From a virus (Duplodnaviria; Heunggongvirae; Uroviricota; Caudoviricetes): a DNA stretch of 29,089 nt. The translations under genes were made by a program, and so were the position numbers. Of this stretch, positions 5,395-17,605 are shown piece after piece. Location of the stretch: the IMG/VR virus record IMGVR_UViG_2529292726_000018, positions 1-29,089 of that record. One strand, written 5' to 3'. Numbering within the stretch: the first letter of the stretch is position 1; each line of letters begins with the position of its first letter. The notes below the pieces were generated by a model. It worked only from the letters and a program-made list of their open reading frames with translations, did not search any database and was not told the origin of the DNA.

Positions 5395-6357
5395 TCAACT
5401 AATCGCCTCAGCACTGGCTTTTGCGATCACGGCAGCCGGGGAATTTTTTTTTCTGGTTATCGTAGGTGCTTCATCTGCTGCGGTAATGCTCAATTGAACC
5501 TGGATAATGTCGCTATTACCCCCATCAGGCCATTCACCTGACACCTGAACCTTCGGGAAACTGAAAGTGTATGCCCCCTCTCCATTCGAAAGCGTGAAGC
5601 TGAACGGAACTGTTTCTCCAGTCAGTGTTTTACTCCAGATTTCCCACGCGGCTTTAGACCATGAAAGCGTCACCGTACCGGACGGTGTAAAAGTAGTCGG
5701 AATATTTGCTCCTGCATAAGGCGAGCCAGTCCCGATACAACGCTGTGTCTGGAGTTTGTTATCGAACTGAATATCAAAACTGTCGATACAAAAACCGTTA
5801 CCTCCGGCAACACCATTCAGGCTTACTGCTGAAACCTCCTTAAACGAATAACGTAGCTTTCCTGCACTATCCACAGGTTCGCCTTTGATAAAATTCGTAT
5901 CATCGGCCTTTGATTCCCAGTCCAGTCCGGCAAAGGTTACGGTCGCTGTAATATCGCCGTCGTTAGGGATCTGCATTTTCCATGAGCCAACCTGCGCTCC
6001 TCTGACGACAGAGGCAATTCCGACATCGGACGCATAGGTCGCCAGAGAAAATGTTATTCGCTCATTCCCCATTGTCAGAGAATCGCCTGACCATTCCGCG
6101 CCGAAACAGGATGCAAGAAAATCATCATGTTGACCCCAGCGAAATTTGGTACCAACATCACCGCCGACATCCACAGTGCCAGGCGTCGCCCCCTGAGCCA
6201 TCCGGGAGCCACCAATCTCATTATTTTCGCCTTTATTCTGGGTGGGTTTTACTCCCCAGCTTGTGCGTTTTAATAAACTCCAGTCACCACTTGCTGGCGT
6301 AGTGCCTGCAACCGTCTCCCGGATAAATGCCGAGATAACCTTTGCACCTGAACTCAC
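5395..6357 (-). CDS. Major tail (tube) protein, probably with a C-terminal Ig-like domain
   Basis: 320 aa. GTG start five nt after a strong SD (AGGAGG). Position upstream of the G/T chaperones; Thr/Ser/Gly-rich beta-type composition. Confidence 0.8.
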   Translation of the reverse strand: MSSGAKVISAFIRETVAGTTPASGDWSLLKRTSWGVKPTQNKGENNEIGGSRMAQGATPGTVDVGGDVGTKFRWGQHDDFLASCFGAEWSGDSLTMGNERITFSLATYASDVGIASVVRGAQVGSWKMQIPNDGDITATVTFAGLDWESKADDTNFIKGEPVDSAGKLRYSFKEVSAVSLNGVAGGNGFCIDSFDIQFDNKLQTQRCIGTGSPYAGANIPTTFTPSGTVTLSWSKAAWEIWSKTLTGETVPFSFTLSNGEGAYTFSFPKVQVSGEWPDGGNSDIIQVQLSITAADEAPTITRKKNSPAAVIAKASAEAIS

Positions 6358-6383
6358 AGGAGCCTCCTATGTCATTAATTGCG

Positions 6384-6776
6384 CTAGAGCGCGCGATATG
6401 GAATTTGAAGATTAAGCTGGAACCAGCCATTCTTTTCGCCAACGGCTATTGAGGAAACAGCCTGGTAACTGAGACGATCGTCATCCTGAAACTCAAACAG
6501 TTCCCGCAATTTATCGGCTGTCTCAGTAATGAGTTTTGAACCAGAACCTGCGGGGACAAATAACTGAATAATGATTATCCCCGTGCGATAAACAATCGGC
6601 CCCGCGCCAATTTCATTAACTCCAGCCTGCCCGGGAATATTACTTAACCGCGCCCAGATTAACTTACCGGAAGGATCGAACGTTGGCGCGTTCGGATACA
6701 ATACGTCTTTTCCATCAATAATCGTCTGTGCCGTCATTCTGGAAATAACCGTATTTCTGATTTCAGTAAACGTCAT
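6384..6776 (-). CDS. Tail terminator / tail component protein (lambda U position)
   Basis: 130 aa ORF immediately upstream of the major tail protein gene. Assigned by synteny only. Confidence 0.5.
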   Translation of the reverse strand: MTFTEIRNTVISRMTAQTIIDGKDVLYPNAPTFDPSGKLIWARLSNIPGQAGVNEIGAGPIVYRTGIIIIQLFVPAGSGSKLITETADKLRELFEFQDDDRLSYQAVSSIAVGEKNGWFQLNLQIPYRAL

Positions 6777-7153
6777 TTGTAAGCCTGTAAAACACCATGA
6801 AAAGCGTTGGCATACACGCCAGTTGGCGCTTGTTGTGAATAACCGTTTTCAAGAGCCTCTGCATAAGGAAGGTTATTCTGGATATAAATAACTCCGTAAT
6901 TTGCAGCTTTCGAAATAACCCCGATCCCACGCTGAACAGCAATCGTACCGTTCGGATCCACGTTATCAGATATACCAAAATCGGGATGCTGTAACGACAC
7001 CAGGTTGTTATTTCTGAAACGTCCGGTATCAACCGGAGCAGCAATATCAATAGCAGTAAGAATCTGAATAGCGATGTAGCGAATCTTCAGCCCTACATCT
7101 TCCTCAATCATCCCGGCAAATATTGACGGTTCTATATCCCATGCCTTTGCCAT
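6773..7153 (-). CDS. Tail completion protein (HK97 gp10-like, lambda Z position)
   Basis: 126 aa; size and position match the HK97 gp10 family. Overlaps the neighbouring stop by 4 nt. Confidence 0.5.
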   Translation of the reverse strand: MAKAWDIEPSIFAGMIEEDVGLKIRYIAIQILTAIDIAAPVDTGRFRNNNLVSLQHPDFGISDNVDPNGTIAVQRGIGVISKAANYGVIYIQNNLPYAEALENGYSQQAPTGVYANAFHGVLQAYK

Positions 7154-7537
7154 TTACGCTCTCCTTAACTGGATAGAGTAAACTGATGCGGAAGGATCTA
7201 CACTTGCTGTAATTACCTCGTATCGTTGTAACTGCCTTGATACAGGATCATAAATCTCAATAATATGGTCGACAGCTGGTTTATCCGTAACCTCGCATAC
7301 CAGAGCGGTTAATTTAAGGTCACCATGCAAAATATTAATCCCATCAATTCTGCCCAGCTTATAACGTGTCAACACGCCTCGCCCGGTATAGATTTCGGTG
7401 GATTCGCCGCCAGTTTCCGTCACAGGATCCCAGTGCCGGTGCGTAACGTAAGAACCAGAAAAATCACTCACGGCGTCCGCTAAATCCTCATCAAAAGCAG
7501 CGGCAACCTCTGACTGAATCTCTTCACGAAGCCCCAT
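7154..7537 (-). CDS. Head-tail adaptor / head closure protein
   Basis: 127 aa, between the connector protein and the tail completion protein. Assigned by synteny. Confidence 0.5.
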   Translation of the reverse strand: MGLREEIQSEVAAAFDEDLADAVSDFSGSYVTHRHWDPVTETGGESTEIYTGRGVLTRYKLGRIDGINILHGDLKLTALVCEVTDKPAVDHIIEIYDPVSRQLQRYEVITASVDPSASVYSIQLRRA

Positions 7538-7932
7538 TATCCCCCCCTCACAACCCTGACTTGTGAGCGACTAAGTCCGTACGGTTTCAGCAGTGCTATC
7601 GCAAGCTGTAAATCGGGTTCAAGCAATGCAGTGCTGTTTGCTGGCAACTCAGAAAATGATTTCGATACACTGACCCCGTCAGCCGACACGGCTTTACTGA
7701 TAACAACGCCAGAATCATTTTTCTGCTGAAACAACTTACCGAATGAGGCAATTCTGGCTGCATATGCTCCCGCAAGTTTTACCTCTTCCGGAATACGGGA
7801 TGGGTTAATTTTCAGGTTGAAGCCATTAAGCCAGGCATTAGCCATTAAAACAGCTTTATTTTTAGCGTTCTCACTCGTCCAGGCGTTCCCAAACGCATTA
7901 TCAACGTCATCACAGGTCACGTAAGTGATCAT
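7537..7932 (-). CDS. Head-tail connector protein (gp6-like)
   Basis: 131 aa; first gene of the head-tail joining block after the capsid gene. Assigned by synteny. Confidence 0.5.
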   Translation of the reverse strand: MITYVTCDDVDNAFGNAWTSENAKNKAVLMANAWLNGFNLKINPSRIPEEVKLAGAYAARIASFGKLFQQKNDSGVVISKAVSADGVSVSKSFSELPANSTALLEPDLQLAIALLKPYGLSRSQVRVVRGG

Positions 7933-12766: not shown

Positions 12767-14077
12767 TTAAATCCGAAGTGATGTGACTCTTCCGGTCGGT
12801 TTGACAATAGGGAATTGCTTAACGATGAAATAACCTCCGGCATCATTCGGGTGATCATTGCCAGATTTTTTATCAGGCTCCCCCTTATCATCCCAGACCT
12901 GTTGCTCCAGAGATTCGGCATATACCGGACAACGCTTCACATTAACTTTATAGCGACGCTCACCATTGGCATTGCAGAACATTGCATTCATTGAGTTAAC
13001 GCGATCTTTTACTGGCGGGTTCGAGCTGTTCACCACAACGTTAAAACCTGCCTGCTTAAGCTGGGCTATATCCGTCGTACTTGCGTTACTTGATTTTCTG
13101 GAATCTCCGGAAGCATCTGGATAAATATAAATCTCCCTCACTTTCCGGTAATCATGCCCGTCATACGGCCAGAAGCGTTCTTTAATGAGGCGGATCATAT
13201 CCGGCGTATCGTAGGCATTGATGATTTCAGTTACCGCACATGGAAGCCCCAAACGCAGCACATGGACGATTCCCGCCATCTTTCCAACGTTAAAATCCAT
13301 CCCAATATAAATCGGCTCCCCTGGCTGCTCCACTTCTTCGCAATTATTCAGTTTCCGGTCAAACTGATGGTAAACAGTACCACTTGTCAGGTTAGTAAAC
13401 CGTCCTAGAAGATAGGCTTTAATCAACCCTGGAGGGTATGATTCAAGAAGTGAAGGAATGTAATCTGCTGGCAGGTTCTTTTCATTATCGAAAGTAGATG
13501 CCTGCACCAGACCATACAGTGAGGCCAGCTCTGTTTTTTCACGCACGGCTTTAACAAACTGCTCGTAGACAAATTTGAATCCTTCCGGCGTGGTTGTAAC
13601 GTCAATACCGTTGCGAAGTCCATCAATCTTATAACGCATACGCGCAATTATCTTGCGCCACGCCGTTCTGGCTTTTTCCTTCGGCAAAATATCCAGTTCA
13701 TCCACCAGCGCATTACCAATTTTGAAACCGACGATCGTTTGTGGCTTCTCCATCGATCTGCAGATAGTGGTTCCCCGATACTGGCGTCCGTAATAAAAGT
13801 GAACCTCTTTATTTCCCTCATTAATTTTTACGTTCAATCCCCAGTCAGCAGCAACTTCTTCCACTGTAGGGTAAAAAATATCGCGAATTTGGGGATACGT
13901 TGGCGCAAAATATCCCTGATTTATACCTGGATGCTCCCAAATCCCCTTGCATATGCCGCCACACCCAACCCATGTTTTGCCCGAGCCAAAACCAGCAATA
14001 TAGGCTTTAAATTTATGGGGCATTGAAAGAAATCGCGCCTGAGGCACATTAAGCGTCGGAGAGATCATCTTCATCAC
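12767..14077 (-). CDS. Terminase large subunit
   Basis: 436 aa with an N-terminal Walker A motif (AGFGSGKT) and acidic segments consistent with an ATPase plus nuclease. Overlaps the small terminase gene by 29 nt. Confidence 0.85.
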   Translation of the reverse strand: MMKMISPTLNVPQARFLSMPHKFKAYIAGFGSGKTWVGCGGICKGIWEHPGINQGYFAPTYPQIRDIFYPTVEEVAADWGLNVKINEGNKEVHFYYGRQYRGTTICRSMEKPQTIVGFKIGNALVDELDILPKEKARTAWRKIIARMRYKIDGLRNGIDVTTTPEGFKFVYEQFVKAVREKTELASLYGLVQASTFDNEKNLPADYIPSLLESYPPGLIKAYLLGRFTNLTSGTVYHQFDRKLNNCEEVEQPGEPIYIGMDFNVGKMAGIVHVLRLGLPCAVTEIINAYDTPDMIRLIKERFWPYDGHDYRKVREIYIYPDASGDSRKSSNASTTDIAQLKQAGFNVVVNSSNPPVKDRVNSMNAMFCNANGERRYKVNVKRCPVYAESLEQQVWDDKGEPDKKSGNDHPNDAGGYFIVKQFPIVKPTGRVTSLRI

Positions 14078-15143
14078 TCCTTAATCTGGCATCAACCACA
14101 TTAATATTGATCGCCACAGGCTGGGGATGTTCATTATCCTCCACCGTTTCGATCTCTTTGCGCAGCTTCTGGTTTTCTATTCTGCGCCGTTCAATTTCCA
14201 GTTCCTGTAGCCGTTTATCTGCACATAATGCCCCGCCAGCAGAAAGCAAACGCAACAATTCACGCCGGGCGGCAGCCTTATCCTCCAGCAGGATCTCAAC
14301 ACCGTATTTTCCGAGCTTTGACCCTGCATATAATTGCCGCGCATCCCCATCAAGCAGTGTGGTATCAGCCATATAAAGCTGTCCCGTTCCCTCACCGCAG
14401 CACTTCGGGCAATCCGGATTGGGTATGGCGTTATCAACAAAGCCGAGGCCTCCATATTCCGGCTCGGGTTTACCATCTCTGGAGGCCTGTGCCGCAGCCT
14501 TATCGAATTCTGCAATATCACGCCACTGGTAGAGATGATTCTCGCCCCAGCAATAACGGCAGTTAACACGGCGAAATTGTGCCAACTGATTGGGGTCGGC
14601 CTGGACAATGGCCATCAACTGGCTCACCAGTAAATCCAGGTCTGCGGTATAGCGTTTCTGGTACTGATTGCGGAAGTAGCTGATAGCACGATAAACCCTG
14701 GCATTTCTAAGCATACGGCTGGCGTTGCTGTTAGCTGTCGCACCTTGCCCCTCATAACCAGCCAGTCGGTATGCCTCTGTCGGCTTTTTCCCCTGAGCAA
14801 CCAACATGGCGAATTTTGCCTGCTGGTCAGAAATACCGAATTCATCGGGGCAGAACGAAATTTCTTCCGTGTCCCCCTCAATCAGGAGTGCATCGGATAC
14901 AGCCTTTTTTTTCTGAGATTTTCCGTTCTGCCTTTGCGCAGTCTGCGCAGTTTTTTTTCGCGCACTTTTTTGCGCAGTTTTGCGCATTTCTTTCTGCGCA
15001 TTTTTCGGAGTTTTTTTGATGTAACGACGGGCTGTTGCGTAGTTCAGTCCCCTTGCTTCACACCATGCCACCGGAGATATACCGGAGCGGGTGTATTCAG
15101 CAATATACTCCTGCTGCAACGCCCCCCAGTCCGGTCTGCTCAT
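14049..15143 (-). CDS. Terminase small subunit (Terminase_2-like core with N- and C-terminal extensions)
   Basis: 364 aa. Core AKFAMLVAQGKKPTEAYRLAGYEGQGATANSNASRMLRNARV resembles the small-terminase signature. Also has an N-terminal HTH-like segment, a Lys-rich linker and a Cys cluster (CRYCW...CPKCCGEG). Confidence 0.65.
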   Translation of the reverse strand: MSRPDWGALQQEYIAEYTRSGISPVAWCEARGLNYATARRYIKKTPKNAQKEMRKTAQKSARKKTAQTAQRQNGKSQKKKAVSDALLIEGDTEEISFCPDEFGISDQQAKFAMLVAQGKKPTEAYRLAGYEGQGATANSNASRMLRNARVYRAISYFRNQYQKRYTADLDLLVSQLMAIVQADPNQLAQFRRVNCRYCWGENHLYQWRDIAEFDKAAAQASRDGKPEPEYGGLGFVDNAIPNPDCPKCCGEGTGQLYMADTTLLDGDARQLYAGSKLGKYGVEILLEDKAAARRELLRLLSAGGALCADKRLQELEIERRRIENQKLRKEIETVEDNEHPQPVAININVVDARLRSDEDDLSDA

Positions 15144-15146
15144 CAG

Positions 15147-15398
15147 TTAGTCCTGATTTTTATCCACCCTGAGTAGTTCGCGCAGAGCAAAGGCATCCCC
15201 TTTTCTGGCAAGCTTAAACAATGCCGCTCGTAACTCGGCTTCACCTTTCGCTCTGCCCTTACGGATGGCCGCATAAAAATCTGTCATTGCTTCCCGATTT
15301 TCTTTCAGTCGGTTCAGATCAACATCCAGAACGTCAGCGATTTGTTGTGCAGTCATCCGGCACGCTGCCAGAGACTCGACTTTCGAATACGGAATCAT
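15147..15398 (-). CDS. Small hypothetical protein with a possible HTH (83 aa or less)
   Basis: MTAQQIADVLDVD is HTH-like. Overlaps the 3' end of the upstream gene; lies between the GT-A-like gene and the small terminase gene. Start codon uncertain (15398 or 15356). Confidence 0.4.
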   Translation of the reverse strand: MIPYSKVESLAACRMTAQQIADVLDVDLNRLKENREAMTDFYAAIRKGRAKGEAELRAALFKLARKGDAFALRELLRVDKNQD

Positions 15399-16266
15399 TT
15401 GTCACCCCCATTGATATGCAGGGTGTCTTCTTCCTGTATTTTTCGTGAAGGATTTTTACTGCAGCGTTGTTCCAGGTGACCTGATGGTGAATGCGTTTAT
15501 GGCTGGCACCCATCAGTGAGATTTTTACGCACGACGGCGCATACATGACGGAGTAAAAACTTTTAACGTAGGTTCCGGAATCCAGATACAGCTCGGTCAT
15601 TCCGCCGCTGTTTTTCTGCGTCTGTTTCTGCCCTAACTGGACAGCACCGATCGTCATAAACAATTCACCACAGCGACCGAGATTCGTGTACGTATTCACA
15701 TCCTCGTTAATGCGCCCCATGAATGAGAACGGTCGATCAACCGAACAGATAAAGCTGTTCATTGCCTTGCGTTTCACCCACGAAGCATGGCCGCCATTGT
15801 CACCAAGAAAATCCCCGCCCTGCGACATAGCGATGGAAAGCGCGGGTATTGATTCGTAATACGCCAGCATTTCAGAAAGGATCGCATCCAGTTTCCTTAT
15901 CGGGAAATAGGCCTGGTCATAGTTGCGATCCACCCGAAACTGGAACTCGTGATAATCATCATCGAGCTGAATGAAGTATTTACACCCGACCAGTTTTGCC
16001 AGGTCGAAACAGGCATTACGGGCGTAAAAAATTGAGCGGCGGTCACCAAAATTATCGGCTTCGTCAAAACGACTGGCAATATCGGCTTTGGAAAATACCA
16101 GCACCTGTTCACCAAATTCAGCCATGTACTGATGCCGTGTCTTATCTTCATCATCAACAACGATAAAAATTTTCCCGGTATAGCCAGCACGACGCAACGT
16201 CCGGTAAGTCAGAACTTTGTCCGGTCGCCCGTGAGTCAGAATAAAGGCGCAAAAATCATCACGCAT
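15334..16266 (-). CDS. Hypothetical protein with GT-A-like (DxD-type) nucleotide-sugar transferase hallmarks
   Basis: 310 aa. ATG at 16266 preceded by a G-rich SD and coupled to the ParB-like stop (ATGCGTGA overlap). N-terminal AFILTHGRPDKVLTYRTLRRAGYTGKIFIVVDDED and later KYFIQLDDDYHEF look like a GT-A Rossmann start and a DxD motif. Fold assignment is by eye only. Confidence 0.55.
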   Translation of the reverse strand: MRDDFCAFILTHGRPDKVLTYRTLRRAGYTGKIFIVVDDEDKTRHQYMAEFGEQVLVFSKADIASRFDEADNFGDRRSIFYARNACFDLAKLVGCKYFIQLDDDYHEFQFRVDRNYDQAYFPIRKLDAILSEMLAYYESIPALSIAMSQGGDFLGDNGGHASWVKRKAMNSFICSVDRPFSFMGRINEDVNTYTNLGRCGELFMTIGAVQLGQKQTQKNSGGMTELYLDSGTYVKSFYSVMYAPSCVKISLMGASHKRIHHQVTWNNAAVKILHEKYRKKTPCISMGVTNDSVFESRVSGSVPDDCTTNR

Positions 16267-17047
16267 ATTCCCCCTCCCCGCTATGCATGATCGCCACCAT
16301 GCGCTGCGTCATTCGGACAAATCCATTTTCAATAGCCTGCTGATAATCAATGATCACCAGCGCCGACTCCTCGAAAAGGCACTGAATTTCAGCGGGGGCA
16401 TGAGCGTAATAGTCCGCAATTCTGCTGAAATTAAACACCGTGTGACGTTCTGCCGCACACAGGAGGAATTTCTCAATATCAGGATCAAGGGACGCCGAAC
16501 GTATCCGGCTGATCAGCTCCTGAGTTTTCGTATCGTCGTACAGTTCACTGATATCCGGTTTACCGCCCGACGGCTCATAAACAGGCGTATCAATTTTCGT
16601 CGTATACGGCTCCTCCTTATTTCCTGTACCGGGCAAAACATCCGTCAACAGTTCATCAATTTCTGTCGGGCCGAAGCCTGTCAGGGAGACATCAAAATCA
16701 GCATTGATTAGGTCCGACAGCTCCATCCGCAATAGATCTTCATCCCAGCCAGCATTCATCGGTAGGCGATTATCTGCCAGGCGGTACGCCTTTTTCTGCT
16801 CATCCGTCAGGCCAGACAGAACAATGACCGGAACAGAATCCATTTTGAGCATTTCAGCCGCCATAACACGACCGTGACCCGCAATAATTTCGCCCTTTTC
16901 GTCAATCAGCACCGGATTAGTCCAGCCGAATTGCTTAATACTTTCTACCAGTTGTGCCACCTGCTCAGTACTGTGCGTCCTGGCGTTGTGCGCATACGGT
17001 GACAATTCTTGTAATGGGCGATAGACTATCTTTAATTTCTCGCTCAT
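16259..17047 (-). CDS. ParB-like N-terminal domain protein (ParB/Srx superfamily; IbrB-like)
   Basis: 262 aa. ARTHSTEQVAQLVESIKQFGWTNPVLIDEKGEIIAGHGRVMAAEMLKMDSVPVIVL matches the ParB N-domain pattern (GxGR, then hydrophobic VPV). SD (GAGG) before ATG 17047. Confidence 0.8.
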   Translation of the reverse strand: MSEKLKIVYRPLQELSPYAHNARTHSTEQVAQLVESIKQFGWTNPVLIDEKGEIIAGHGRVMAAEMLKMDSVPVIVLSGLTDEQKKAYRLADNRLPMNAGWDEDLLRMELSDLINADFDVSLTGFGPTEIDELLTDVLPGTGNKEEPYTTKIDTPVYEPSGGKPDISELYDDTKTQELISRIRSASLDPDIEKFLLCAAERHTVFNFSRIADYYAHAPAEIQCLFEESALVIIDYQQAIENGFVRMTQRMVAIMHSGEGEYA

Positions 17048-17066
17048 ACAGCCTCGCTTTATGAAT

Positions 17067-17159
17067 AAAAAAGCCCGCTATCGGCCAGTGCGCTGGGTGC
17101 GCGGCGGGTGCTGATAACGAGCTTTGACATTATCGCAGCCCCTCACACTGAAGGGCTGC
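17067..17159 (-). terminator. Pair of hairpins (terminator-like) between the acidic small gene and the ParB-like gene
   Basis: Perfect 7 bp stem GCAGCCC/GGGCTGC at 17135-17159 just after the upstream stop. A second GC stem (CCCGC/GCGGG with an inner CCAG/CTGG) is followed on the minus strand by UUUUUUAUU at 17067-17072. Confidence 0.35.
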
Positions 17160-17170
17160 TGTAATGCCTG

Positions 17171-17470
17171 TTACTCAGTAACAACTGCGCCTTCCGGTAA
17201 TTTCATACCGGCAAATACCGGACAACCAGGATGACAATCATCTTCTGTTGCTTCCAGCATTGACTCACCAAACCACTCCGTCGTGGCGCGACCATCAGCT
17301 GCTTTGTAGTGGATCAAGTACTGGTTTTCGCCATCCGCATACTGCGCGCGGGCTTTAACCTCCCCCCATTCATCACTGATGCGCATCTCCACCAGTTGAG
17401 ACAACTCAAACTTAAACGGAGCAGCATCAGCACCAATTACAATCGGTTTGTTTTTTGTTTTTTCCATCAT
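17171..17470 (-). CDS. Small acidic hypothetical protein (about 99 aa)
   Basis: ATG ATG at 17470/17467 with SD AGGAG. MMEKTKNKPIVIGADAAPFKFELSQLVEMRISDEWGE...; net acidic. Flanked by hairpins on both sides, which suggests an autonomous accessory gene. Confidence 0.55.
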   Translation of the reverse strand: MMEKTKNKPIVIGADAAPFKFELSQLVEMRISDEWGEVKARAQYADGENQYLIHYKAADGRATTEWFGESMLEATEDDCHPGCPVFAGMKLPEGAVVTE

Positions 17471-17605
17471 CGTCTCCTGATATCGAAGCCCGCCGCCGCA
17501 CCGGGCGCTGATCAACATTTGAGTATTCGCAGCGAAAGAAAGAATTTATTTTATTGAGTAGCCACAAACACAGAATTTCGTGCTTTCCAGACGATGGCGC
17601 ATCCT

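Follow-up and report, generated by a model that had tools for sequence, protein, structure and literature searches.

A ParB-like protein and a TAGT-family glycosyltransferase form a widespread two-gene cassette in phages and prophages

The viral record IMGVR_UViG_2529292726_000018 (29,089 nucleotides (nt), called the window below and analysed over its full length) is a Rac-type (Rac-like) lambdoid prophage. It carries on its minus strand a cassette of two genes, the first encoding a ParB-like protein of 262 amino acids (aa) and the second a putative glycosyltransferase (GT) of 310 aa. We found that this cassette belongs to a very widespread, TET-independent clade of TAGT (TET-associated glycosyltransferase) proteins with a dedicated partner domain. 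The invariant partner of the GT is a linear motif plus a helical C-terminal domain (CTD) of the ParB-like protein, rather than its ParB N-domain; motif and CTD together constitute a previously unnamed domain family. The cassette is located directly upstream of at least four unrelated terminase families.

A two-gene cassette in the late operon

The features of the cassette are listed below by window coordinates. ORF stands for open reading frame, AF2 for AlphaFold2, and A1 and A3 are two GT alignments described in the next section.

16259..17047, minus strand: ParB-like partner, 262 aa (ORF; Pfam ParB_N; PHROG 620; AF2 model)
16763..17047, minus strand: ParB/Srx nucleotide-binding domain (NBD) of the partner, aa 1-95 (Spo0J/ParB alignment; conservation; Foldseek)
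16643..16762, minus strand: acidic helix-helix segment of the partner, aa 96-135, with W101-D102 and L122-T-G-F125 (model helices 103-115, 120-123 and 127-134)
16571..16606, minus strand: invariant linear motif Y148-T-x-K151-I-x-x-P155-x-Y157-E-P159, in the disordered linker aa 136-170
16283..16537, minus strand: helical CTD of the partner, aa 171-255, six helices (model helices)
16259..16266, minus strand: overlap of the ParB stop and the GT start, 8 nt, ATGCGTGA (ORF coordinates and sequence)
15334..16266, minus strand: predicted TAGT-family GT-A glycosyltransferase, 310 aa (ORF; Pfam PF20691; PHROG 842; fold matches)
15955..15963, minus strand: codons of D102-D103-D104, putative DxD motif binding metal and nucleoside diphosphate (NDP)-sugar, plus strand ATCATCATC, minus strand GATGATGAT (invariant in A1 and A3)
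15700..15705, minus strand: codons of E188-D189, the 'ED' of R...DDD...ED (sequence; E188 and D189 invariant in A1, D189 invariant in A3)
15397..15600, minus strand: basic C-terminal extension of the GT, aa 223-290, pI 9.6 (conservation; outside the TAGT profile, as the Pfam match ends at aa 222)

The two genes adjoin the lysis and terminase genes and run in the same direction. The order on the minus strand is: holins (two holin-like ORFs), an M15 endolysin, an Rz-like gene, a 115-aa ORF, the ParB-like gene, the GT gene, an 83-aa ORF with a putative helix-turn-helix (HTH), and the genes for the small terminase subunit (TerS; Terminase_2) and the large terminase subunit (TerL; Terminase_6). Positions 16259-16266 read tcacgcat on the plus strand, and the reverse complement, ATGCGTGA, contains both the start codon of the GT gene and the stop codon of the ParB-like gene. 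From its sequence, this overlap is predicted to couple the translation of the two genes; an overlapping or adjacent layout of partner and GT is found in all 21 genome loci we collected.

An initial annotation of this DNA had described a protein with a ParB N-domain whose stop overlaps the start of a protein with GT-A hallmarks (VVDDED and LDDD), in the late operon between lysis and terminase genes and with no partner resembling 3'-phosphoadenosine-5'-phosphosulfate (PAPS) reductase, i.e. no IbrA-like protein. The gene order and the profile and fold matches bear out this description, and the homology of the 310-aa protein is confidently to transferases rather than to packaging or structural proteins. 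The range initially marked as the module (15147-17170) additionally spans the 83-aa ORF and a 123-nt leader 5' of the ParB-like gene.

The cassette is common in Escherichia coli: its 2-kb segment (97% identical) is found in 1613 out of 5426 complete E. coli genomes, 866 of which contain at least 80% of the segment, and E. coli W (NC_017664.1, 1517448-1519471) is among the strains with a prophage carrying the intact pair. RefSeq names the two products 'ParB/Srx family N-terminal domain-containing protein' (gene ynaK) and 'GREB1-related protein' or 'hypothetical protein'. K-12-like Rac elements (locus L002) retain the GT gene, and their ynaK/ParB gene is a truncated remnant beside trkG. In Shigella flexneri (L003, 5093-6005) the ParB-like gene is split into two ORFs by an apparent frameshift, and the GT is 100% identical to that of the window.

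The glycosyltransferase

Residues 8-222 of the GT match the Pfam family TAGT (PF20691) with 121.6 bits (cut-off 27.5; E-value 5.5e-35), and the protein matches PHROG 842 (E-value 9e-104). More than 8000 database proteins match the GT, and PF20691 is carried by all of the 120 homologues listed. These homologues are about 288 aa long; the last ~20 aa of the 310-aa protein are specific to the E. coli lineage and fall inside the overlap with the 83-aa ORF.

The AF2 model of the GT has a mean predicted local distance difference test (pLDDT) score of 65.9: it is confident for aa 1-150 and poor after aa 215 (below 50 for aa 216-270). When compared with PDB structures, the model matched the GT-A enzymes SpsA, glycogenin, GnT-I and LH3 at a Foldseek probability of 1.0, and the S-glycosyltransferase ThuS is also among the fold matches. 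Viral TAGT proteins were matched in BFVD (E-value 2e-21, template modeling (TM) score 0.63). A sequence search of PDB with the GT profile gave nothing meaningful (the best hit, with an E-value of 0.94, is an endophilin), and no solved TAGT structure is reachable by sequence. Neither NCBIfam nor PADLOC has a match for the GT, the 83-aa ORF or the 115-aa ORF.

We used two alignments of GT homologues: A1 contains 18 close homologues, and A3 contains 17 sequences reaching down to 26% identity, including proteins of a Porphyromonas phage (26% identical) and of a haloarchaeal virus. R14, D38 and D41 (both in the VVDDED stretch), D102-D103-D104 and E188-D189 are invariant in A1; R14, D102-D103-D104 and D189 remain invariant in A3. 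An R...DDD...ED(Y/F) motif has been reported for phage DNA GT-A enzymes and for the base-J glucosyltransferase JGT (bioRxiv 10.1101/2023.12.21.572611); in our GT the residue after ED is V, not Y or F. Based on these motifs and the profile and fold matches, the 310-aa protein is predicted to be an active, metal-dependent GT-A glycosyltransferase of the TAGT family.

The GT is 51-59% identical among phages of Proteobacteria, Bacteroidota, Bacillota, Planctomycetota and Actinomycetota. Its C-terminal extension is highly conserved as well (GGMTxxY, GTYxKSFY, PS and R-x-H-H), and is modelled with low confidence when the GT is folded alone.

The ParB-like partner

The partner matches Pfam ParB_N (29.3 bits; cut-off 26.3) and PHROG 620, 'ParB-like partition protein' (E-value 3e-90). 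Its sequence matches in PDB are Spo0J/ParB proteins, and its AF2 model (mean pLDDT 73.9) matches CDP/CTP-bound ParB, Noc, KorB and PadC at a Foldseek probability of 1.0; sulfiredoxin is also matched. The protein is acidic overall, with a pI of 4.6 and a net charge of -20.

The NBD carries N21-x-R23, G57-H-G-R60 (in place of GERR) and D92-N93. In a phylum-wide alignment G57 and R60 are conserved in every sequence, and N21-x-R23 and N93 in most of them. The phosphate-binding positions are kept (Arg of box I, GxxR of box II and Asn of box III), making this a putative nucleoside triphosphate (NTP)-binding site. The catalytic Glu of the GERR box, which serves CTP hydrolysis, is replaced by H58 (GHGR); relatives have GN(M/Q)R, GH(L/Q)R or GERR at this place. 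The NBD and the helix-helix segment together (aa 3-141) match the N-terminus of phage ParB-DNA-methyltransferase fusions (phrog_498, E-value 3.7e-51), and the PADLOC model MTase_II (PDLC03229) covers aa 10-141 (E-value 1e-38), a match to the ParB-like N-terminus of this type II methyltransferase model only.

The linker that follows (aa 136-170) is predicted to be disordered, with pLDDT below 50 for aa 136-155. Y148, P155 and Y157 of the motif in this linker are invariant across phyla, including in partners that have no ParB N-domain. The CTD has the signature FLxxAAxRHxxF...IAxxYAH...SALVIIDxxxAIxxG, and is not covered by any Pfam model. When the full library was searched with motif plus CTD, 1173 representative clusters (at 50% identity) were found, and the domain is C-terminal in all of them. 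No HTH profile matches the partner; after the NBD its model shows only the helix-helix segment, the linker and the helical CTD.

Two other identities for the partner were considered and rejected. It is not a partition ParB: it has no HTH, parS or ParA, and there is no parA-like gene in the window or in related loci. It is not a small terminase subunit either, as a separate TerS is encoded in the window and in most loci.

Co-occurrence of the partner and the glycosyltransferase

We counted pairings by hidden Markov model (HMM) matches on stop-to-stop frames, as greedy ORF calls had picked antisense ORFs in the GC-rich loci L010, L021 and L109. A scan of viral contigs with an E. coli-centred GT alignment gave only near-identical E. 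coli prophages, and it was repeated with a Bacteroides-first alignment.

The pairing seen in the window recurs well beyond it. In each of the 21 genome loci, which come from very different taxa, the gene directly 5' of the GT encodes a partner homologue and has the same orientation. Among 80 diverse viral contigs found with the Bacteroides-first GT alignment, motif plus CTD lies directly upstream in every assessable locus (77/77); the ParB N-domain is present in 69 of these loci and absent in five to seven. Conversely, when 80 viral contigs were collected by the CTD alone, a GT was found downstream in all 80 (adjacent in 69, and with one inserted gene in 11), and across the 160 loci the CTD is seen only with the GT. 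Partners of 131-139 aa in Vibrio phage pv27, a Lachnospiraceae prophage and a Bacteroidota contig (L111, L019 and L022) consist of motif and CTD alone; therefore the ParB N-domain is dispensable in some lineages, and motif plus CTD is not. The pair is found in phages of many bacterial phyla and in one archaeal virus.

The cassette also occurs in variant forms. In P0337 (534 aa), TAGT, ParB_N, motif and CTD are naturally joined in one protein, and in an Ignavibacteria locus (L018, 189-1739) the partner carries an extra N-terminal class-I methyltransferase domain. The single genes inserted between partner and GT encode a fusion of His_Phos_1 and CTP_transf_like (cytidylyltransferase-like) domains in nine loci (L210, 3853-4803, and eight related viral loci), a radical S-adenosylmethionine (SAM) protein in one (L260, 957-1901) and a class-I methyltransferase in one. 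The histidine-phosphatase and cytidylyltransferase-like fusion probably makes a nucleotide-activated donor. A sugar-nucleotide epimerase/dehydratase adjoins the GT in one locus. We observed that a distinctive class-I SAM methyltransferase (VD[VA]GCG; weak matches to Methyltransf_23/11/12) recurs with the cassette, fused to the partner in L018 and as a separate gene between partner and GT in a viral contig (L218, 1506-2339). In L187 (~5759-7850) the genes are in tandem, with two TAGT genes flanking a partner that has motif and CTD and no ParB N-domain.

Position next to terminase genes

In the window the cassette is located upstream of Terminase_2/Terminase_6 genes; in other loci it is found immediately upstream of Terminase_4 and an HK97-type TerL (L105), an HK97-type TerL (L107) or GpA (L108). 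It also directly precedes the terminase in phage jlb1, a Porphyromonas phage and Nocardia phage NTR1. In Lactobacillus phage c5 the order is cos, ParB, GT, two small ORFs and TerL, and in the archaeal virus HHTV-2 the cassette is ~3 kb upstream of TerL. A scan of 55 non-redundant viral loci, covering in each the two nearest downstream genes that encode 90 aa or more, found large terminases of several families (Terminase_6N, 21; Terminase_3, 18; T7-type, five; GpA, three), together with several small-terminase families; further terminases and portals lie just beyond. Cassettes without the NBD sit among replication genes (DNA polymerase I, primase, exonuclease and helicase). Phages deposited as isolates carry the cassette as well: Vibrio phages of 191 kb, and Lactobacillus delbrueckii phage c5, in whose genome no integrase is annotated.

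Two further observations concern these loci. In L105 (17837-20316) four consecutive GT2-family genes are located just after the capsid gene, reminiscent of virion-glycosylation clusters. The gene after the large terminase is named 'anti-CBASS protein Acb1 family protein' in L001 (5133-6569) and the portal-like 'DUF4055 domain-containing protein' in L002 (15859-17265), which is probably an annotation inconsistency.

Comparison with known systems

The initial annotation had put the pairing forward as a candidate undescribed module. This claim has to be narrowed: the GT belongs to a curated Pfam family, RefSeq names both genes, and ParB genes in TAGT/TET DNA-hypermodification clusters were described by Iyer et al. 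2013, as quoted in PMC8256090 and PMC13229309, where a proposal from the same work, that ParB directs the modification apparatus during packaging, is also quoted. Moreover, a ParB-like activator of a phage thymine dioxygenase acting on double-stranded DNA (dsDNA) was demonstrated in 2026 (PMC13229309). Our literature search found no paper describing a TET-less ParB-TAGT pair or its partner domain. Papers retrieved for 'ynaK' were only screens and genome notes, and searches for ParB with glycosyltransferase, prophage, terminase or anti-defence gave only the TET/5mYOX papers from New England Biolabs (NEB) and unrelated work.

Phage GT-A (TAGT-type) enzymes are reported to glycosylate 5-hydroxymethylcytosine (5hmC) made by a C5-methyltransferase and TET, with ParB and terminase genes noted nearby (Burke et al. 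2021, PMC8256090; bioRxiv 10.1101/2023.12.21.572611). These TET/5mYOX-associated enzymes and JGT resemble the GT of the window in Pfam family (TAGT, PF20691), GT-A fold and the R...DDD...ED residues, and the TET/5mYOX-associated ones are likewise encoded by phages, often near ParB and terminase genes. They differ in their neighbours: known TAGT enzymes act on 5hmC or 5-hydroxymethyluracil (5hmU) supplied by an adjacent C5-methyltransferase and TET, a T-dioxygenase or a ThyS-like enzyme, and the clade of the window has no such neighbour. Unlike the TET-associated GT-A enzymes, it has the conserved basic C-terminal extension outside the TAGT profile and the dedicated partner domain. In the largest published survey, ~65% of GT contigs had neither 5mYOX nor ThyS as a neighbour and were set aside, their link to DNA being less obvious (bioRxiv 10.1101/2023.12.21.572611); our cassette is a clean and abundant example of this set.

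For the ParB-like protein a close parallel is ParB176, which is required for the activity of the phage thymine dioxygenase 5mYOX176 on dsDNA, in cognate-specific pairs (O'Toole et al. 2026, PMC13229309). Compared by description, the 5mYOX-associated ParBs and the partner in the window share an NBD, a helix-helix segment, a disordered linker of ~50 aa, a CTD and the absence of a DNA-binding domain. The enzymes they accompany differ: that of ParB176 is a Fe(II)/2-oxoglutarate dioxygenase, a post-replicative DNA modifier, whereas that of our partner is a GT (21/21, 77/77 and 80/80 loci). Methyltransferases carrying a fused ParB fold are over-represented in prophages, and the ParB folds concerned bind CTP, ATP or GTP (Kaljevic et al. 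2025, PMC12704722). In our partner, the NBD plus helix-helix segment (the N-terminal 140 residues) is clearly homologous to such prophage proteins (phrog_498, PDLC03229), with E-values of 1e-38 to 4e-51. In those proteins the module is covalently fused to an N6/N4 methyltransferase, while in the window the same module sits on a proposed docking motif plus CTD and the GT is encoded separately.

The IbrA/IbrB arrangement, named initially as the usual pairing of prophage ParB-like proteins, also combines a ParB/Srx-fold protein with an enzyme on a mobile element. It is only one of several such pairings, and the N-terminal half of our partner is closest to the ParB-methyltransferase fusions; the remark that IbrA is missing here is correct. 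In IbrA/IbrB the second gene is PAPS-reductase-like, and the enzyme, the CTD and the genomic position all differ from those of our pair. An IbrAB identity was rejected, as no PAPS reductase is present and the neighbours are the 115-aa ORF, the GT, the small HTH ORF and the terminase. Another likeness is with the DpdA/DpdB system of 7-deazaguanine DNA modification, in which a ParB-like NTPase is needed by a DNA-base-modifying enzyme. DpdA is a transglycosylase that swaps guanine for preQ0 and is not known to be related in sequence to TAGT, and the system is chromosomal or on genomic islands. A eukaryotic relative of the GT is GREB1, a 1949-aa multidomain protein with a TAGT-like GT domain that O-GlcNAcylates (adds O-linked N-acetylglucosamine to) estrogen receptor alpha (ER-alpha) (PMC7968844). 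GREB1, after which RefSeq names the E. coli protein, shares this domain but has no ParB partner.

Absence of an enzyme making the usual sugar acceptor

We looked for three types of enzymes that could provide the usual acceptor: TET/JBP, ThyS-like hydroxymethylases and C5-methyltransferases. None of them is encoded in the window or in a complete Rac-type prophage, nor in the flanks of four Pfam-annotated metagenomic loci. Nor does phage c5 encode any of them in its complete genome of 31.8 kb, where no ORF left without annotation reaches 210 aa. Among 150 neighbour proteins of 55 loci, TET_JBP is not one of the families with at least two members (25 of the 78 families are listed, so that a single hit is possible). 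The usual TAGT acceptor is therefore not made by these phages, i.e. the acceptor cannot be a phage-made 5hmC or 5hmU.

Proposed function and alternatives

The possible DNA-glycosylation or anti-restriction role named in the initial annotation stands as a possibility. Our best reading, which we hold tentatively, is that the cassette is a late-expressed, packaging-proximal DNA-modification module in which the ParB-like protein activates or delivers the GT. In tailed phages it would form a self-contained unit for late nucleic-acid modification, placed in front of the packaging module. The GT would transfer a sugar, as do characterised TAGT members, which target hydroxymethyl-pyrimidines in DNA. 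Motif and CTD would dock onto the GT, probably on its basic C-terminal extension; this contact is suggested because acidic and basic conserved surfaces are paired and because the extension does not fold confidently alone. The NBD and helix-helix segment could couple the GT to dsDNA or gate its activity, as ParB176 does for 5mYOX176. The substrate of the pair would be phage DNA after replication, modified shortly before packaging or in the course of it; such DNA would then be protected or marked in the next host. We infer the contact between GT and partner, the activator role, the DNA target and the biological purpose alike.

Several observations speak for a DNA target. The link to DNA comes from the match of the NBD and helix-helix segment to the N-terminus of ParB-DNA-methyltransferase fusions and from the location of the cassettes, next to terminase genes or, in versions lacking the NBD, among replication genes; the occasional sugar-nucleotide, radical SAM and methyltransferase neighbours are like those of known DNA-hypermodification clusters. 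Late expression and a position before the terminase fit modification of replicated DNA before packaging; by analogy, phage Mu too has its mom gene among the late genes. That the GT is so extremely conserved in phages of different hosts points to a universal acceptor, and DNA and the partner motif would qualify as such, while host or virion proteins mostly would not.

Other observations weigh against it. The weak point is the chemistry: with the enzymes for a hydroxylated base missing, a DNA target would need chemistry undescribed for a GT-A enzyme, on a new acceptor (an exocyclic amine, the backbone or a DNA end), or else the target is not DNA. The partner is strongly acidic and has neither an HTH nor another DNA-binding domain, and the catalytic Glu of its GERR box is replaced. 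Mutations at the NTP site of ParB176 had little effect (PMC13229309). GREB1, the eukaryotic TAGT-like enzyme, glycosylates a protein (PMC7968844), and we found no published experiment on a ParB-TAGT pair. The more specific idea of a TET-independent glycosyl modification on a canonical base, the backbone or a DNA end around packaging, with the partner (motif plus CTD) as an essential co-factor, is in our view rather doubtful. If true, it would mean a chemically new DNA modification produced by a two-gene system that is present in about one-sixth to one-third of sequenced E. coli genomes; in the current view, post-replicative sugar hypermodification of phage DNA builds on a hydroxymethyl-pyrimidine that TET/5mYOX or ThyS-type enzymes supply.

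The main rival explanation is protein O-glycosylation, which we consider unlikely on balance. In its most specific form the acceptor is one of the invariant Tyr residues (or the Thr/Ser) in the disordered motif of the partner, in the manner of glycogenin; alternatively, the sugar would go to a protein of the packaging machinery or the virion that is produced simultaneously. This would account for the lack of a hydroxylated base to accept the sugar, and for a motif that is invariant from phages of Proteobacteria to those of Bacteroidota and Bacillota and lies in a segment predicted to be disordered, yet an invariant linker motif is equally typical of a docking peptide. The TAGT-like GREB1 is a protein O-GlcNAc transferase (PMC7968844), and glycogenins are among the fold matches of the GT, though these reflect the shared GT-A fold only; L105, with its four further GT2 genes after the capsid gene, also points this way. 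The GT is, however, 50-60% identical across phyla while the terminase, portal and capsid families differ completely, and a virion or packaging-protein target is therefore unlikely. For a purely self-modifying cassette the gain to the phage is hard to see, and the N-terminal half of the partner is a module otherwise fused to DNA methyltransferases.

It is less probable still that the cassette serves anti-defence or host takeover, with the GT glycosylating a host protein, RNA 2'-OH groups or a small-molecule immune signal or nucleotide, and the ParB-like protein as a regulatory subunit. GT-A chemistry is versatile enough for this (the S-glycosyltransferase ThuS is among the fold matches), ATP, CTP or GTP is bound by ParB/Srx folds, some of which are small-molecule kinases, and a few loci have sugar-nucleotide and radical SAM neighbour genes. 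But the late operon is expressed at the wrong time for an enzyme needed as infection begins, conservation of its target from archaea to E. coli would be required, the persistent adjacency to terminase or replication genes would be left unexplained, and the GT has no PADLOC match. That last point also counts against prophage defence or lysogenic conversion, in which the pair, expressed in the lysogen, would glycosylate incoming phage DNA or the cell surface and so exclude superinfection; we regard this as very unlikely. The possibility was raised by the authors of the GT survey, who report the prophage wall-teichoic-acid GlcNAc-transferase TarP as the best PDB match of phage GT-A enzymes (bioRxiv 10.1101/2023.12.21.572611), and the pair is very frequent in E. 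coli prophages. However, the genes lie inside the late operon between lysis and terminase with no promoter of their own scored, phage isolates (c5 and the Vibrio phages of 191 kb) carry the same cassette, and neither protein shows an apparent membrane segment or signal peptide (by reading the sequences only). O-antigen conversion of the gtrABC type was rejected on the late-operon position and the soluble appearance of both proteins, judged in the same way.

If the target is DNA, the cassette would represent a new kind of glycosylation, of a base or the backbone, which would matter for evading restriction and CRISPR, for artefacts in sequencing and for enzyme tools. A protein target would instead make it a phage system of a new type that glycosylates proteins with the help of a ParB fold. 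The motif and CTD of the partner extend an emerging theme, that of ParB folds as adaptors for DNA-modifying enzymes.

Neighbouring genes and other features of the prophage

The genes next to the cassette are as follows.

17171..17518, minus strand: acidic ORF of 115 aa, directly upstream of the cassette (phrog_1935, function unassigned)
15147..15398, minus strand: small HTH-like ORF, 83 aa from the first ATG and 69 aa (210-nt coding sequence) in RefSeq (phrog_309, 'terminase small subunit', E-value 8e-23)
14049..15143, minus strand: terminase small subunit (Pfam Terminase_2)
12767..14077, minus strand: terminase large subunit (Pfam Terminase_6N and Terminase_6C)

For the terminase genes there is also a match to PHROG 51. 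The 115-aa ORF has no match in Pfam, in addition to NCBIfam and PADLOC. The 83-aa ORF overlaps the 3' end of the GT gene by 65 nt when read from its first ATG, or by 23 nt from the start given in RefSeq. Its match to the 319-position small-terminase profile phrog_309 is confined to the middle part (positions 145-218), and the ORF is seen in enterobacterial loci only, plus weakly in L013. It resembles a fragment of a small terminase and is probably a member of the packaging module, not of the cassette.

The leader between the 115-aa ORF and the ParB-like gene (17050-17170, minus strand) contains a perfect 7-bp hairpin in the region AGCAGCCC TTCAGTGTGA GGGCTGC (~17136-17160), and then a GC-rich segment followed by TTTTTTATT just 5' of the Shine-Dalgarno sequence. 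A promoter scan 5' of the ParB-like gene scored no sigma-70-like promoter, and the hairpins of the leader (~17075-17160) got no intrinsic-terminator score in a terminator scan. The hairpin may be a processing site, a leaky terminator or an element of translational control.

Two more features were found elsewhere in the prophage. A 298-aa AraC-family regulator (19052-19948, minus strand) is encoded between the lysis genes and the upstream genes of the late region. It is most similar to YdeO, GadX and HilD (NCBIfam YdeO, E-value 5e-43, below the model cut-off) and looks like prophage cargo (a 'moron') of acid-resistance or virulence type. At the junction of the early and late regions (22073-22243, minus strand) there is a match to the Rfam sok antitoxin RNA (RF01794; 101 bits, gathering score 59). 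It indicates a hok/sok-type toxin-antitoxin locus, and related prophages have a Hok/Gef protein annotated at the equivalent place.

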